A DNA stretch of 64,000 bases from Plasmodiophora brassicae (taxonomy: Eukaryota), in NCBI GenBank assembly GCA_036867785.1, contig CP145413.1:496001-560000 (forward strand), written 5' to 3'. The translations under genes and the position numbers were made by a program. Position 1 is the stretch's first letter. Each line of letters starts with the position of its first letter. The notes under the pieces were generated by a model. It did not search any database, had not been told where the DNA came from, and saw only the letters and a program-made list of their open reading frames with translations. Shown piece by piece: positions 38,760-60,185 of the stretch.

Positions 38760-41586
38760 ATGGATGCTGCGCTGTCCAGATGGGGAACTCTGATCACGAG
38801 CAGCCGCGGGCGGCTTCTGGTGCCGATTGCATGCGCCATCGTCGTTGTTGTCTGTACGGTCAGCGTTGCCGTTGATGGCGCACAGCGTGTTCTCATAACG
38901 TGTATAGCGGCGTACTGGGCGGCACGCTTACCGGATTCCACAGAAGGTAATCATAGAACATGACGTGGCAGGATTGATTACCGGATCTGACCACGATGGT
39001 AGTGACGTTTGAACCGCCTCCGCAATCGCCGTCGGCAGAAGCGGAACAGGTCATCGCAGAGGCGTTCCCTTCCCTCGATCGTCAAATGGTTCTCGTCGTA
39101 CTTGCTACATCTCAGACGCCTGGAGTTACCGATCTGCAACCTGTGCAACAATTCCATGACCGTCTGGACGCGCTGGTCGTGTCCATGCCAGGCGTTCGGC
39201 TGACGGATTACTTTTCGATGTCCGCCAAGAGGCTTCCCCAATTGGCTAGCCGGATGGTTACCGATGACGGTCGCTCGACAATCTTCCTTGTGACCTATCG
39301 GGGGGAACCTAAACGGCATCTCGTCACTCGACGCGTACAGGCTCTGGTTGCAACGGCCTCGTCCCCGGTGGTCTCCTTCGGGTTAACTGGCGTCGATCCT
39401 CTCATCCAGTCAATTGTCGCCGACGCGACCGACGACCTTCTTCGGACAGACAGTGTGTCTCTTCCGATTGCACTCGTCCTGATGGCGTTTCTTATAGGCA
39501 GCGTACTGTTGCTGGCTCTACCGCTGATGTCGCTCGTGACAACGTTGTGCGTGTCGTTCTCCATCCTCTACGCCTTGACACACGTCACCGCCATCAGCTC
39601 CATCGTGCCACCTATCTCAATGTCCCTGATTGTCGCTCTATCCATCGACTATTCGCTGTTCCTCCTCGTGCGGTTCAAGGAAGAGATCTCAGAAGGAAAG
39701 ACATCACGTTCCGCAGCGTGTATATCACTGAGAACAGCCGGGCGCGCGATCGTTACTTCTGGATTGACGCTCGCAGCGTCCTTCGGGTCACTTTGCCTGT
39801 TCCGAGCGGAGCTGTTACGCTCGCTTGGGCTAAGCGCAGCCGTTGTCGTGGTCTGTACAGTCTTAGTCAACCTGACGCTGACGCCTGCTCTGCTCGCCTT
39901 AATCTGGCCGACCGTCGACCACGCTTCATGCGCCTGGAGCATGTTCAGACGTCCAGCGTCCAACAACGACACTGGCAGGATCTGGACGCGAATTGCAAAG
40001 ATGACAACGTCATCGAAGCTGTTAGCGCTGTTGAGCAGCACTGTTGTTCTCGTCGTCACGATTCCCGTTGCCGTCCGATCTTCCCAGGTTGTCACGACGA
40101 TCGATGCCTCGCAAATGTACCCGCGAGGCACGCCCGCATACAACACGCTCCAAGATCTCGGTACGCGATTCGGTGCAGGAGCCATTTCCCCATACCGCAT
40201 CGTCCAAACAGTGCCGCCGGGCGCCTCCATCTTCGGCGAAACGTGGTGGACAGAAGCGCAGAACCTCGTTCAGTCGATTGCGTTTCATCAAATCTGCGAC
40301 TCCAAAGGTCAGGGCTCGATGGTCAGCCCTGGTCATTCGCCACTGAATGGTCTCTGATTAGACATTGGCGCTGTGAGCGTTGTCCCGTCATTCGGCAACA
40401 TATCGTCTGAGCTAGCGCAAACCATAATTGCTCATCCAGACCTATTGCCTGGGGATCTTGGGCGCTCATACGCGTACGTCTTCAACGAGCTCGTGAACGA
40501 GAAGCGAACTGCTACGATAATCGAGCTACAGATCGCATTTGATCCTCTTGGCGATCGTGCGGCATCCTTGATCGCCGATGTACGATCGTTGCTGGTTGCC
40601 TACGAGAAACGCGGAAATGCTCGATACTACCTGACTGGCGGAGCCGTTCCCATTCTCGACACCATCGACGACGTGTTCAGGTTCGCTACATGCGCGCCAT
40701 GGGGACGACCGTTGTGCCTAAACGCTATGTCGTACAGCCACGTTCCCCATGCTGCGGTTTTCGTGGCCCTTCTCATTGTCGTGTTCCTGACGGTGGAGTT
40801 CCGGTCGGTCTTCGTGTCGGTTCGCGCGTCTGCTGGCATCGTCCTGTCCTTGTGCTGGGTGTTTGGCGTCGCAGTGGCTGTGATACAGTCCGGGTGGCTG
40901 GAGGCCCACTTTGAAGCCTATCGGGGAATCCGAGCGCTGTTCTGGTACCCAACGTTCACATTGTCGTTTCGCGCAAAGGTGCCGAATGAAACGTCGCTCA
41001 GGCTGACTCCGGTTCTCGTGGCGCCCGTCGTCGCCGGACTGGGCCTCGACTATGACATATTCCTGATGGAACGAATCGCCGAATATCGGGACCGCGGTCG
41101 TTCACATGCGGAATCGATTCGTCTTGCTGTTCTGAAAACAGGTTGGCAGAGGAACACGCCCTCAATGTATTGCGATCGTAACGTCGTGGTGAACGTGCCA
41201 ATAGGAAGTGTCATCTCTGGAGCCGGCCTGATCATGGCGGCCGCATTCTGCGGCCTGATGGCGTCCCGCATCGTGTCAGTGGCACAGATCGGGTTCATGC
41301 TAACCTGCGCGGTACGCCAACCCATCGTACATACGCCGCCGAGATTCGCGTCTCACCGCTGCGCCCAGGTTCTCGTCGACACCTTTGTCATCCGGGCATT
41401 CCTTGTCCCGTCCCTAATGTCCGTCCGCGTCGAGCACCCGATCACCGGCCGCCGTCTAATCACGATCCGCACAGGTTCCTCGCTGGCCAGGACATCGCCT
41501 GGTTTCCGTCAACAGTTCGCTGCTCGTCCAAGGCCGCACTGGCAATCGACGACGACCTCTACACGCCGTTGACGGCCGGTGCTTAA
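38760..41586 (+). CDS. MMPL-family (RND superfamily) lipid transporter with spliceosomal introns
   Basis: Two RND halves with ALSIDYSLFLLVRFKEE / TAGRAIVTSGLTLAASFGSL and GLGLDYDIFLMERIAEYR / GSVISGAGLIMAAAFCGL; VLVDTFVIRAFLVPSLM. Confidence 0.88.
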
Positions 41587-56302: not shown

Positions 56303-57394
56303 TCAGGCAGCGATGATGGCGATGACGATGGCAGATAGCGCGGTGATAATAGGGACGGGGTAGATTGACGCGGATGAGCTGATTGCGACTGCTGGTGGCG
56401 GCAGGGGTCGCTGCTTCACGGGGATGGCGCGGGCGCCGACGCCGGTGTTGGCGGCGGCGGCGTGGATGCCAAGCCCGATGGCGCCGGCGATGGCGATCGC
56501 GGGGACGATCCGGTTCTTGATCGAGAATCTGGACGGGGGCGGGAGTGCCGGAAGGGACTTGGCCGGCAGTCGCTGGATCACATTCTTTAGCATGTATGCT
56601 GCGGCGAGGCTACCAGCGGCGCGTCCCAGGGTCCATTTCCACCTGGATGGCGATGCCGTTCTTGTACTTGTCGCCGCACTGCTCGTCTCGGGGGCCGCAA
56701 CAGGAACGCTGTCCTGAACGCCTTCGGCTGGGGCGACCTCGGTCTGATCGGGACTGCTCGTGTTCTGCTGACTGCCGGCGACGGGAACGCGCCCTTCAGC
56801 AGCAGCGTCCATGGGGGTATCGTCGTCGTCGTCGTTAGACTCGTCAACAGTTTGCAACGGACGATCGTGTGGAGGTTCGTCGTGTTGCCAGAACGTACAG
56901 TCGGGATTCGACTGCGTCTCGAGTCGATCGTCGGCGGGCATCGGCGTGCAGGATCGTGATGCCGGTTGCGACAAGGCCTTCCCCGGGGCCGGCCGAACCC
57001 GCGCCGACAAGGTGTCGTCGGAATCGGTGGCCGAAGTCGAGCACGGCAGGAACTGGACAAGTTGAGGGGTCTTGCCCGCTTGCGATTCGAGTTCCTCTAG
57101 CCGAGCTGTCAGCCGGGCCACACGCGTTTCCAGAGCGCCGCGCTTGGTCTCGTAGTTCTTCGTCAACACAGAACGACGACGGCGAAGCACGCGGACGTTC
57201 CCGGCGGGAATACTCGCCAGATCCCGTTCATACTGCTGCTTGCACTTGAGACCCGACCGGGCCTCCTCCCCAAGCGCTTTCTTCATGCGAGCGATCTTCG
57301 CCTGAAGGTCACCGTTGCCCGTCGATGCCGCCGCGGCGCCGAGAGCCACGGTCACGACGACCAACCAGCAGACGACGGCCTTGACGCGAACCAT
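56303..57394 (-). CDS. Secreted/membrane-anchored orphan protein (signal peptide, coiled coil, C-terminal hydrophobic anchor)
   Basis: MVRVKAVVCWLVVVTVALGAAAA; coiled coil; acidic linker; hydrophobic IVPAIAIAGAIGLGI and terminal PIITALSAIVIAIIAA; intronless. Confidence 0.75.
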   Translation of the reverse strand: MVRVKAVVCWLVVVTVALGAAAASTGNGDLQAKIARMKKALGEEARSGLKCKQQYERDLASIPAGNVRVLRRRRSVLTKNYETKRGALETRVARLTARLEELESQAGKTPQLVQFLPCSTSATDSDDTLSARVRPAPGKALSQPASRSCTPMPADDRLETQSNPDCTFWQHDEPPHDRPLQTVDESNDDDDDTPMDAAAEGRVPVAGSQQNTSSPDQTEVAPAEGVQDSVPVAAPETSSAATSTRTASPSRWKWTLGRAAGSLAAAYMLKNVIQRLPAKSLPALPPPSRFSIKNRIVPAIAIAGAIGLGIHAAAANTGVGARAIPVKQRPLPPPAVAISSSASIYPVPIITALSAIVIAIIAA

Positions 57395-57682
57395 GTGCGC
57401 GGTTCGATCGACCCGATTCGGAGTGAGCGGTGTGCGACTCCAAATTCCGCACGCCGGCTACTTCCTTTCAACGCAATCGCAGCGCACACCCGGGCTGAGG
57501 CGCCACAGCGGGCGCCCAAGTTTGGACCCCCTGGCGCCACTGGCGCCGTGGCGCGCACTTGGGGCCCCCCGTGCCACCGGTGCCGCACCGCCAAGTGCCA
57601 AGCCGGCGATCATCACCATCACCGTGACGAAAATACCTACACGCAGCGGTCGTGCACAAGGTCGCACGCGCCATGCGGAGGC

Positions 57683-57874
57683 TGACTCGTATAATGTGCA
57701 AGCAGTTGGAAGCGTTTAGGAAAGTGTTGTCCTCAGTGTATCTAACGTGGGGGGAAGCCGACGTCCCCATGACGTCGCACTCAACTGTGGCGCGGTCGCC
57801 ACTGTGCTTCAGTTGCATCACGTCGTCGCAACTCATGGGTCGGCCACTGTCGCTAGCCTTCCCATCATGAATCA
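57683..57874 (-). repeat. 3' LTR
   Basis: Direct repeat of 59065-59254; imperfect terminal inverted repeat TGACTC...GAATCA. Confidence 0.92.
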
Positions 57875-57938
57875 GCCGCCCTAAGGCGCTAGCGACAGGT
57901 CCACCCGACCCATCCCTGCCGCCCTCTTCATGACCTCC

Positions 57939-58722
57939 GGTTCACGAGTGGTCAGAGAGGCTCCACGCCATGCATGTATGCGATCAAGAAGAACGTACAC
58001 GAGGACGAACTTCCTCTGATTATCGACATACCCGACGACCGTCCGGACCTGGCGTGGAGCGCCATCCAGACAGAGTACTCCGGCCAAGCGGGCACGGAGC
58101 TGGCCATGTTCGACATTCTCTTGTCAACAACGAAGCTCAAGGCGGGCGCCGCCCTCACGGAGACGAAGGCGCACCTGACGGCGATGCGCGACCTGGGCAT
58201 CAACCTGGCCCGGGCGGATCCGAATCGCGCGAAGACTGAGTCGGACATGGCGACGAAGGTCCTTATCTCGTTGCCGTATACCGAGTATAAGGACCTGGTC
58301 AACTCGGTGCTGCGCTGACCTTGCCTTGCGTCAGCTCCCCGAAGGGACCGCGCAGCATCGAGTTGACCAGGTCCATATACTCGCTATACGGCAGCGAGAT
58401 GAGCACCTTTGTCGCCATGTCCGACTCGGTCTTCGCGCGATTCGGATCCGCCCGGGCCAGGTTGATGCCCAGGTCGCGCATCGCCGTCAGGTGCGCCTTC
58501 GTCTCCGTGAGGGCGGCGCCCGCCTTGAGCTTCGTTGTTGACAAGAGAATGTCGAACATGGCCAGCTCCGTGCCCGCTTGGCCGGAGTACTCTGTCTGGA
58601 TGGCGCTCCACGCCAGGTCCGGACGGTCGTCGGGTATGTCGATAATCAGAGGAAGTTCGTCCTCGTGTACGTTCTTCTTGATCGCATACATGGCGTGGAG
58701 CCTCTCTGACCACTCGTGAACC
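57939..58722. repeat. Inverted repeat of gag sequence: arms 57939-58315 and 58350-58722, 34-nt loop
   Basis: Arms are reverse complements; ~260 bp identical, one 4-bp CATG insertion, 8 substitutions near the loop. Confidence 0.97.
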
Positions 58723-59028
58723 TGTGGAGGTCGACGCCCAGACCAAGAAATTGTCCTTGCCCTTCAGCTGGACGGAGATCTTGATGCCGGACTCCTTCAG
58801 GCCCGGCAGCCTTTCCTTCTGCGCCGCTTCCAGCCGCGCCATACGATCCTTGAGCGCCGCGTTCTCGCGCTGGCCGGTCACGCTCTCGGCCGCCGCTGCT
58901 TGCAGGCGTTCAACCTCCGCCTCCAGCCGGCCCTGCTGCCGCTGGGCCTTGGACAGCGCAGCGCTCATCTCGGCGATCACGGCCTCCGCTTGGGCCGGGT
59001 CGGCTGGGATCGTTGGGATCGTCGCCAT
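58316..59028 (-). pseudogene. Copia-type gag fragment, frameshifted near 58725 and truncated
   Basis: Coiled-coil N-terminus, LKGKDNFLVWA, then in another frame AMYAIKKNV...LAWSAIQTEY...KVLISLPYSEY (Copia gag/UBN2-like spacing). Confidence 0.75.
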
Positions 59029-59037
59029 TACGCGTAC

Positions 59038-59064
59038 CAGTCGTAGAGACTGGGACTCTTAATC
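59038..59064 (-). promoter_or_regulatory. Primer-binding site complementary to the 5' half of tRNA-Lys(CUU)
   Basis: Element strand reads GATTAAGAGTCCCA directly after the 5' LTR; + strand CAGTCG-TAGAGACTGGGACTCTTAATC resembles the recalled eukaryotic tRNA-Lys(CUU) D-loop to anticodon arm. Confidence 0.75.
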
Positions 59065-59254
59065 TGACTCGTATAATGTGCAAGCAGTTGGAAGCGTTTA
59101 GGTGTTGTCCCCAGTGTATCAAACGTGGGGGAAGCCGACGTCCCCATGACCTCGTCGCACTCACAGTGGCGCGGTCGCCACTGTGCTTCAGTTGCGTCAC
59201 GTTCGTCGTGACTCATGGGTCGGCCACTGTCGCTAGCCTTCCCATTATGAATCA
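59065..59254 (-). repeat. 5' LTR
   Basis: Direct repeat of 57683-57874 with several substitutions and indels. Confidence 0.92.
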
Positions 59255-59351
59255 TAGGCGATTTCCGAGATGCTATCCTCGAACGTGACAAGATCTGCAT
59301 GTGATCGAACGGGTAGTACCTGGCCTGTCGTTCAGGTGGGGATCGTACGAA

Positions 59352-60185
59352 ATGCTGTATAAGGCGTTGGCGATAATCGGCAGTGCGGTAGCCTGGAGGG
59401 CGGTCGCAGAGACGTGCTGTGCGCGCCTGCAAGTGACAGCACTGGGGCAGTTGTCGTCGACGACTGCGTCGTGTACGAATTTAGAATCCGGGACGACGTT
59501 GATAGAGCAACCCGGAGGGTATGATGAGCTAGTCGGGCAGCGGGACCCGAATCCATACGTCATGGTGTGCACCGTATACGATCCCGGAACGTTTCGCTGG
59601 TGGCTGAACGGCCTCACAATGCAAGCACTGTCATCGTGCTCGTCGATGCCGCCCGTGACATGCACAACGCAACAGAAGGTCGGTCTGCCGTGGAACACAC
59701 GCCGACTATCGGTGAACCCTGATTCACAGCCGCTGACCGTCGACGGTGACCTAAACGTCGTCCTGGCCTGGGGGTACTACACCAACTTCAACACGTCGTC
59801 GCGGCCCTGTGGCGCCACGGGCGACATGCAGGCGACGGATCCGTCCACCGGATGCCAAATCCTGATGCCGTCCGCGATCCAAGCGACCGCCTCGCTCACG
59901 GCAGGCAGTACCGTCACGTTCACGAGGCAGTTCCGCGTCAAGCAAGTCGTTGGGCCCGGGAGCGACCACGCGGGTCCGTTGTGGGAAACCATGTGGTTGA
60001 CCGTCGGGACCAGCACGCTCTTGATCGTTGCCGTCGGAGCCTGCGGCGGCTGCTGCTGCTGCTGCCTGGGCTGCGGCATCTGGTGCAATCAGTGTCGCAA
60101 GCGTCGCCAGTGGCAGCGCCTGGCGAACGGTGCCGGCCCAGTGGCAGCGACCATCGCCACGACACCGAAACCCAACCCATGGTAG
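59352..60185 (+). CDS. Type I membrane/surface protein with Cys-rich juxtamembrane segment
   Basis: Signal peptide MLYKALAIIGSAVAWRAVA; Cys-containing ectodomain; TM followed by CGGCCCCCLGCGIWCNQCRKRR. Confidence 0.75.
   Translation: MLYKALAIIGSAVAWRAVAETCCARLQVTALGQLSSTTASCTNLESGTTLIEQPGGYDELVGQRDPNPYVMVCTVYDPGTFRWWLNGLTMQALSSCSSMPPVTCTTQQKVGLPWNTRRLSVNPDSQPLTVDGDLNVVLAWGYYTNFNTSSRPCGATGDMQATDPSTGCQILMPSAIQATASLTAGSTVTFTRQFRVKQVVGPGSDHAGPLWETMWLTVGTSTLLIVAVGACGGCCCCCLGCGIWCNQCRKRRQWQRLANGAGPVAATIATTPKPNPW

Follow-up and report, generated by a model that had tools for sequence, protein, structure and literature searches.

Introduction

In maize, Mu killer is an inverted duplication of a partly deleted MuDR transposon (Slotkin et al., 2005, as cited in PMC9868043), and rearranged endogenous pararetroviruses of plants are described, in the available part of the same source, as origins of hairpin small interfering RNAs (siRNAs) that were proposed to feed RNA interference (RNAi) against the cognate elements (PMC9868043). 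According to the accessible text of PMC1819390, a long hairpin engineered into the genome of HIV-1, the type 1 human immunodeficiency virus, inhibits the virus in trans. At the DNA level, fold-back priming at microhomologies with a spacer, the other end being end-joined, is documented for yeast and human in the accessible portions of PMC11724301 and PMC3907307. Here, we describe an element of 1,572 bp that is bounded by long terminal repeats (LTRs) and carries an inverted copy of its own gag segment. It is located at positions 57683-59254, and read on the minus strand, of a 64,000-nt stretch of Plasmodiophora brassicae contig CP145413.1 (positions 496,001 to 560,000), this whole stretch being referred to as the window.

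The element appears to be an old, single-copy, non-autonomous remnant of a Copia-type LTR retrotransposon of ~5.1 kb, in which a palindrome was formed by microhomology-mediated fold-back repair. We assign this interpretation a probability of about 60%.

Structure of the element and of its palindrome

The features of the element are given below in the order of the minus strand. P0001 denotes the closest gag protein found, and "the relative" a full-length family member recovered from public sequencing runs, both of which are described further below.

59255..59259, minus strand: upstream copy of the target-site duplication, GCCTA, as read in the sequence
59065..59254, minus strand: 5′ LTR, 190 nt, TG..CA, identical to the 3′ LTR at 179/186 positions
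59038..59064, minus strand: primer-binding site (PBS), directly adjoining the 5′ LTR, complementary to tRNA-Lys(CUU) positions 13-40
58732..59028, minus strand: gag codons 1-99 (coiled-coil N-terminus to ..LVWAS), 88/99 residues as in P0001; the relative's contigs match to 58732
58708..58731, minus strand: F′, 24 nt copied in inverted orientation from the pol 3′ end, forming the outer end of the proximal arm and mirroring 57931-57953
58350..58707, minus strand: C, proximal arm, 358 nt of sense gag, P0001 residues ~129-248 by alignment
58316..58349, minus strand: D, 34-nt loop of natural gag (..GPFGELTQGKV..), continuing the P0001 alignment
58310..58315, minus strand: 6-nt overlap GCGCAG at the fold-back junction, natural gag as well as complement of 58350-58355
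57954..58315, minus strand: C′, distal arm, holding gag segment C in antisense orientation, from repeat finding and arm pairing
57881..57953, minus strand: F and the pol C-terminus in its natural place (..TTREPEVMKRAAGMGRVDLSLAP) with the stop TAG at 57883-57881, from the relative's contig and translation
57875..57880, minus strand: 6 nt separating the pol stop from the 3′ LTR, with no clear polypurine tract
57683..57874, minus strand: 3′ LTR, 192 nt, TG..CA
57678..57682, minus strand: downstream copy of the target-site duplication, GCCTC, as read in the sequence

An earlier note on this DNA had claimed LTRs at both ends, a 5-bp target-site duplication matching at 4 of 5 positions, an inverted gag copy of ~380 bp replacing the interior, and a tail that might be the pol end. 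Each of these structural items was recovered in its place and far beyond chance. The 7 positions at which the LTRs differ are substitutions (5 transitions, 2 transversions), to which 5 indel events are added; the Kimura two-parameter distance between the LTRs is 0.039 (blastn E 7e-73). The single mismatch between the two copies of the target-site duplication would be compatible with this LTR age. Together, the LTRs, the 5-bp duplication and a half-tRNA PBS for tRNA-Lys(CUU) are the marks of a normal insertion. Ahead of the 3′ LTR, purines make up 6 of the final 10 and 10 of the final 20 nt, and a purine-rich stretch lies 25-55 nt upstream. Each LTR also holds a short palindrome detected by the repeat finder (59162-59184 and 57784-57806), which has a 10-bp stem and a 3-nt centre in the 5′ LTR and is partly eroded in the 3′ LTR.

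The arms of the large palindrome extend over 58731..58350 (382 nt) and 57931..58315 (385 nt) and enclose the 34-nt loop at 58349..58316. They differ by 8 substitutions as well as by one 3-nt and one 4-nt internal indel, with a longest perfect block of 264 nt, and the distal arm C′ carries a 4-nt tandem duplication at 57969-57972. RNA folding yielded one hairpin of -860.7 kcal/mol, compared with -346.6 ± 5.9 kcal/mol for 20 shuffled sequences. The structural part of the earlier claim, namely that an LTR-to-LTR transcript would form double-stranded RNA (dsRNA), holds for either strand, each of which would fold into ~382 bp with the 34-nt loop. The description of the arms as gag copies is correct for most of their length, whereas their outer 24 nt derive from the pol end, with 57931-57953 doubling as the outer end of the distal arm.

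At 58708-58731, the window contains 24 nt where relatives have 89 nt of gag, coding for SMTTMLKKSG..ASEQ of P0001, and because these 89 nt are replaced by a 24-nt inverted piece, gag is frameshifted. The boundary 58708|58707 exactly mirrors 57954|57953, so that the interior has the form of a symmetric palindrome, A-F′-C-D-C′-F-G. Only three novel junctions are contained in it, namely A|F′, the pair made up of F′|C and its mirror, and D|C′ at the fold-back. There, homology to natural gag extends as far as 58310 and the pairing of the arms sets in at 58315; since homology and pairing overlap, the 6 nt GCGCAG are common to gag and to the complement of CTGCGC (58350-58355).

A full-length relative and copy number

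Public sequencing runs gave 24 listed rows, 20 of which hold part of the stretch (10 studies) and 5 at least half of its words (2 studies). Four runs were compared at 85% likeness: X1, a DNA run labelled plant metagenome, and X10, X12, and X18, which were guessed to be RNA. The latter three were treated as RNA because each of them carries a GT..AG joint skipping 59677-59727; this joint is lacking in X1, where a 5,900-nt contig reads through. All of these runs consist of contigs, which show presence and joints, not absence, level, strand or ends.

The three RNA runs contain contigs of a full-length relative (X10 record 10, 2,997 nt; X12 record 19, 4,572 nt; X18 record 24, 3,833 nt), which match 58310-58707 with 39 differences in 398 nt (~90% identity) and continue beyond 58310 as AEVLAQYKRGA (hand translation), exactly as P0001 does. 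Since the X12 contig rejoins the window at 57938-57845 after ~3.9 kb, a gag-pol portion of ~3.9 kb is gone from the window and the intact element would measure ~5.1 kb. Another contig, from the pol end (X18 record 23, likewise found in X1), matches 57847-57953 and then continues with pol coding sequence; combined with the window, its hand translation reads ..NNPADALTKPTTREPVEVMKRAAGMGRVDLSLAP-stop, and the tail of the element is thus the true pol C-terminus. As long contigs of the full-length relative occur in three of three RNA runs, the family is transcribed. In the four runs together, sequence continues in three different ways beyond 59254, where the LTR ends, and these continuations therefore represent family LTRs at other loci or read-through transcripts. 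The full-length partners for which the earlier note had proposed a search hence exist as run contigs, ~90% identical in the arm region, but no other hairpin-bearing copies appeared in the four runs, where only one type of hairpin junction was seen.

The palindrome itself is present in the DNA run. A contig of 218 nt from X1 (58241-58458) spans the loop, reaches 75 nt into the distal arm and 109 nt into the proximal one, and shows 0 differences from the window. The word depth of this loop contig is 58.6, that of unique flanks 59.3, 69.2, and 74.2, and that of a block shared by the arms (58470-58623) 147.2, which hints at a single copy with two arms, contig depth not being the same as copy number. 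The element was found in all four runs compared, and it is skipped by none of the 4 joints that were recorded. A blastn search with the element found no second copy in the 64-kb window, the matches being the LTR pair and the internal inverted self-match. At 58806, 58825, and 58842, the window letters G, C, and T are replaced in all four runs by T, A, and G. These letters hint that none of the four runs, X1 included, is the window's source sample; a strain difference, conversion from a relative, or consensus errors in the window could each lie behind them.

Origin of the palindrome

The following course of events would account for this anatomy. In a first step, a break or stalled fork in gag would have allowed a 3′ end to fold back on the 6-nt inverted microhomology (GCGCAG/CTGCGC), whereupon gag would have been copied backwards and rejoined at the pol end, with deletion of the ~3.9-kb interior. 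In a second step, the proximal arm may have broken at its outer edge and been repaired by snap-back synthesis on the distal arm; as a result, gag would have received 24 nt of the pol end and lost 89 nt, and the outer ~300 nt of the arms would have become identical. The two small indels of the distal arm would then have arisen in a third step. The symmetric palindrome is easier to explain by in-place DNA repair than by retrotransposition.

The distribution of changes between the arms bears on this scheme. Relative to both P0001 and the full-length relative, the proximal arm shows the derived changes T>S and K>M (58384, 58375) and the distal arm M>V, and because both arms carry derived changes of their own, these reflect evolution and not read error. 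Both indels are derived in the distal arm, as the relatives carry the proximal state. The arms have thus evolved separately after the duplication. All 8 substitutions between them are found within 79 nt of the loop (P ~4e-6 under uniform placement) and none in the outer ~300 nt, a clustering on the loop side that is consistent with later re-copying of the outer arm part. Even as a relic, the element would record, in well-resolved form, how fold-back repair took place twice in succession, starting from a 6-nt microhomology, with a palindrome being symmetrically extended and then homogenized.

Several points weigh against this interpretation. The order of the two steps is itself inferred, and a single multi-switch replicative event with subsequent conversion confined to the arm centre fits equally well. 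Divergence beside the loop (8/79) exceeds that of the LTRs (7/186), which is not predicted by a rearrangement after insertion. X1, the best DNA holder, may be the window's own sample, so that its support is perhaps not independent. Long palindromes are usually unstable; the element nevertheless persists in a compact promoter region in all four runs, and this persistence, together with the perfect duplex of 264 nt, could reflect selection. Part of the element is transcribed (58850-59232, in three of three RNA runs), and since the autonomous family is transcribed too, a silencer would have a target.

Possible role of the hairpin in silencing

Any transcript across the palindrome, in either direction, would contain ~382 bp of dsRNA (264 bp of it perfect), which would be diced if the organism has RNAi. 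The element may thus be a natural hairpin-RNA "killer", whose transcript would be processed to siRNAs repressing the autonomous Copia family in trans, as the earlier note had proposed; we regard this as unlikely. What speaks for it is that the 382-bp stem with its 264 perfect base pairs is a long inverted repeat homologous to an autonomous element, that its arms are ~90% identical to a transcribed full-length relative, that the element recurs in all runs compared, and that 58850-59232 is covered by window-type RNA contigs in all three RNA runs. Moreover, inverted duplications derived from transposable elements and acting in this manner are known (Slotkin et al., 2005, as cited in the available part of PMC9868043). 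Nevertheless, the presumed target family is represented by contigs of 2,997-4,572 nt in each of the three RNA runs and is therefore not shut off, and an identity of ~90% means that many 21-nt guides would contain mismatches. In addition, gag is broken and the LTRs have diverged, so that promoter activity of the LTRs is doubtful. In the RNA runs, the arms, the loop and 57385-57772 are without cover by window-type contigs, which, as contigs cannot show absence, is no evidence either way.

A more specific version of this proposal holds that the palindrome is transcribed, for example by a plus-strand transcript into the right-hand gene, and diced to siRNAs that dampen the Copia family, while the perfect 264-bp duplex is kept by selected arm-to-arm conversion. 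It is likewise considered unlikely. Overall, the RNA contigs of the relative, the single junction type and a probable origin by in-place repair lean mildly against a strong or mobile silencer. We think that the element has no selected function and that hairpin small RNAs would be an incidental by-product, provided that the palindrome is transcribed and RNAi operates.

If the silencing proposal were true, the element would be a natural, LTR-bounded retrotransposon counterpart of Mu killer in a compact plant-associated eukaryote. A hairpin that feeds RNAi would make it a small, clean natural case of a retrotransposon family producing its own silencer, with target and trigger both readable from one locus and with transcription of the target already contained in public RNA data. 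For the clubroot agent, the available part of PMC13547706 reports 21-nt small RNAs and a palindromic small-RNA-producing region; this report was not used as evidence here.

Transcription into the right-hand gene

The element sits in the ~385-bp gap that separates two divergent genes and lies upstream of both. The first ATG of the right-hand open reading frame (ORF; 59352..60185, plus strand) is 97 nt away from the element, and that of the left-hand ORF (minus strand) 288 nt. In all three RNA runs, window-type contigs with 0 differences extend over 58850/58856/58919-59232 and 59225-59676. They reach past the outer edge of the LTR at 59254, as no canonical LTR-initiated transcript would. A plus-strand GT..AG joint at 59677-59727 (51 nt) occurs in each of these runs, and a second one at 59334-59389 (56 nt) in X10 only, where it is weak, with a shorter side of 28 nt. 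With this second joint, the right-hand ORF would lose its first ATG (59352), so that the gene model may start elsewhere.

Taken together, contigs and joints hint at plus-strand transcription that begins within the element and continues into the right-hand gene. It is conceivable, albeit quite unlikely, that the element was exapted in this way and supplies the promoter or 5′ untranslated region of that gene, the palindrome being a passenger. The zero-difference contigs across 59254 and the two plus-strand joints would fit such a role. Against this, contigs reveal neither the strand nor the ends of transcripts, adjacent contigs are no proof of one transcript, and the joint at 59334-59389 is weakly supported.

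Alternative origins of the palindrome

The hairpin might also have been formed during reverse transcription (RT), by template switching or self-priming, and inserted afterwards, which would make it a re-mobilizable element similar to a terminal-repeat retrotransposon in miniature (TRIM). Such an origin could explain why the LTRs, the PBS, and the pol end are all kept, and the divergence of the whole arms (8/379) is not above that of the LTRs (7/186). However, the order F′-C-D-C′-F would need at least four switches, including copying of minus-strand DNA. Furthermore, only the one type of hairpin junction was seen, at a contig depth like that of the flanks, and protein searches among ORFs of similar length gave no match, and with it no other truncated copy, among 12 candidates in one case and 769 in the other. 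We consider an RT origin very unlikely. It is by their multiplication in trans to many copies that TRIM families, like large retrotransposon derivatives (LARDs), are defined. With regard to the mobilization in trans envisaged by the earlier note, no such multiplicity has been found so far in the 64-kb window, in the junctions and depth of X1, or in the protein collection.

An assembly artefact, i.e., a fold-back chimeric read or a misjoin, is extremely improbable because, although some long-read and amplification protocols are known to produce artefactual palindromes and X1 is possibly the window's own sample, an independently built short-read contig crosses the loop and its arm flanks without any difference and at flank-like depth, the arm-shared block has about twice the depth of the loop contig, the arms carry reciprocal derived substitutions, and the four runs differ from the window at three positions in a way that hints that none is its source.

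The gag protein and its family

A HMMER pass over 1.84 billion representative proteins returned 19 gag matches at E ≤ 0.001. The closest of them, P0001, is an intact gag of 489 aa, which contains the domains zf-CCHC and Pol_BBD, is 91% identical over residues 135-261 (overall likeness to the window gag 89-91%), and is seen on 3 contigs of public run assemblies. P0001 thus shows the family to include an intact gag. The remaining 18 of the 19 matches are 30-41% identical. A search among longer proteins yielded P0001 only, and the gag family is rare in the collections searched. In a metagenome scan, 5 short loci (1.1-2.7 kb) of distant relatives were found; in one of these metagenome relatives, L003, no pol domain was detected in the ORFs downstream of gag.

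Against the Pfam family Retrotran_gag_2, the window ORFs scored 16.6-17.1 bits (E 0.004-0.006) and P0001 reached 24.8 bits, so that none of them came up to the cut-off of 27. Of 8 family proteins scanned, 7 reach the gathering score with 34-62 bits, P0001 being the exception. Membership in the copia-type gag group would hold by transitive homology only, and assignment of the element to Ty1/Copia probably stands on the combination of LTRs, 5-bp duplication, PBS, and this transitive gag homology.

All 10 aligned gag proteins (from P0001-P0016) end at a conserved ..DL..QDF motif after Pol_BBD, in which Q is invariant and D and F each occur in 90% or more of the rows. The shared ending would point to ORF1 (gag plus beta-barrel) stopping at ..DL..QDF and to pol being read separately.

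The primer-binding site

The presence of a PBS, as stated in the earlier note, was borne out, but it is of the internal ("half-tRNA") type and not of the 3′-end type, its 27 nt not being complementary to a tRNA 3′ end. Compared with the reverse complement of tRNA-Lys(ctt) positions 13-40, 24 of 28 columns match, including 14 of 14 beside the LTR, and the match terminates in the 3′ strand of the anticodon stem, at tRNA position 40. The tRNA used for this comparison was called by ARAGORN on the viral contig L006 and is not the host's own tRNA; it was found with the 14-nt PBS core plus 3 added letters. A fit to initiator tRNA-Met or to a tRNA 3′ end was rejected in favor of the 5′ half of tRNA-Lys(CUU). 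The only Rfam match to the PBS stretch was a chance hit to mir-961 (E 6.6). The soil-metagenome relative L004, which is 42% identical, has the same PBS motif at 303-321 (17/19 columns), with the same tRNA end position and ~35 nt upstream of the gag ATG. A terminal partial tRNA-Lys(CTT)-like sequence, reaching from the D arm to CCA, was noticed on the 8.5-kb IMG/VR contig L007 (8290-8352, minus strand), where ARAGORN did not call it as a gene.

We infer that priming would be by the 5′ half of tRNA-Lys(CUU). Half-tRNA priming is described for Drosophila copia and yeast Ty5 in the accessible part of PMC5371799, and the PBS of the element similarly complements an internal tRNA part that ends in the anticodon arm (position 40) instead of the 3′ end. 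In contrast to copia and Ty5, which use initiator tRNA-Met (PMC5371799), the PBS described here fits tRNA-Lys(CUU). This documents a Copia lineage whose PBS fits the 5′ half of tRNA-Lys(CUU) and not initiator tRNA-Met.

Other observations in the window

The window has a GC content of ~59% and introns of 51-56 nt, and it recurs in runs labelled plant metagenome as well as in RNA runs that carry the labels of other organisms. Rfam gave nothing in the window at the gathering score, ARAGORN found no tRNA in it, and the search of the ESM Atlas with the left-hand neighbor produced no usable match. An oomycete core-promoter motif occurs once against 0.17 expected occurrences, which is uninformative. 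Farther away, a 453-aa ORF at 38996-40357 (plus strand) matches the MMPL family (E 4.5e-44), a mostly bacterial family, whereas the window resembles a eukaryotic genome with spliced genes.

Comparison with known systems

The element is rated as belonging to a known kind, that of transposon derivatives with an inverted duplication, its anatomy being unusually well resolved. In the literature searched, which is not the whole literature, no natural LTR-bounded gag hairpin was found. With TRIM and LARD elements it shares its LTRs, its PBS, and the retained 3′ end of its interior, as well as the loss of pol and its small size (1,572 bp). Those are amplified families, whereas here depth and junction types hint at one copy in evidence.

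Like the HIV-1 construct, the element is an LTR-bounded retroelement genome with a long hairpin directed against itself, although the HIV-1 version, as presented in the accessible text, is artificial and concerns a retrovirus in human cells (PMC1819390). The endogenous pararetroviruses are similar in that an integrated retroelement gained a micro-scale inverted conformation by chance, according to the available part of PMC9868043. Their loci, situated in plants, have matching siRNA peaks (PMC9868043), while the element described here belongs to a different eukaryote.

With regard to mechanism, fold-back inverted duplications likewise contain a spacer with a short inverted sequence at its edge, here 6 nt with a loop of 34 nt, and in both cases one end is synthesized, end joining captures the other, and sequence next to the duplication is deleted (accessible portions of PMC11724301 and PMC3907307). 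As reported in these portions, the inverted sequences formed in yeast mostly measure 5-34 bp, and the human events are megabase-scale and terminal (PMC11724301; PMC3907307). The palindrome examined here, in contrast, is ~380 bp long, interstitial, located inside a transposon, and seemingly was extended symmetrically a second time.

Mu killer, finally, is a deleted transposon derivative with an inverted duplication of its own family's coding sequence, the transcript of which would be a long hairpin, and in these respects it resembles the present element. Reportedly, it derives from a DNA transposon, and genetic work has proven that it silences in trans in a heritable manner and yields hairpin siRNAs. 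The element described here differs in being an LTR retrotransposon within its own LTRs, with a hairpin that is predicted from the DNA. Judged by analogy, Mu killer would be its closest functional analogue and fold-back repair its closest mechanistic one.

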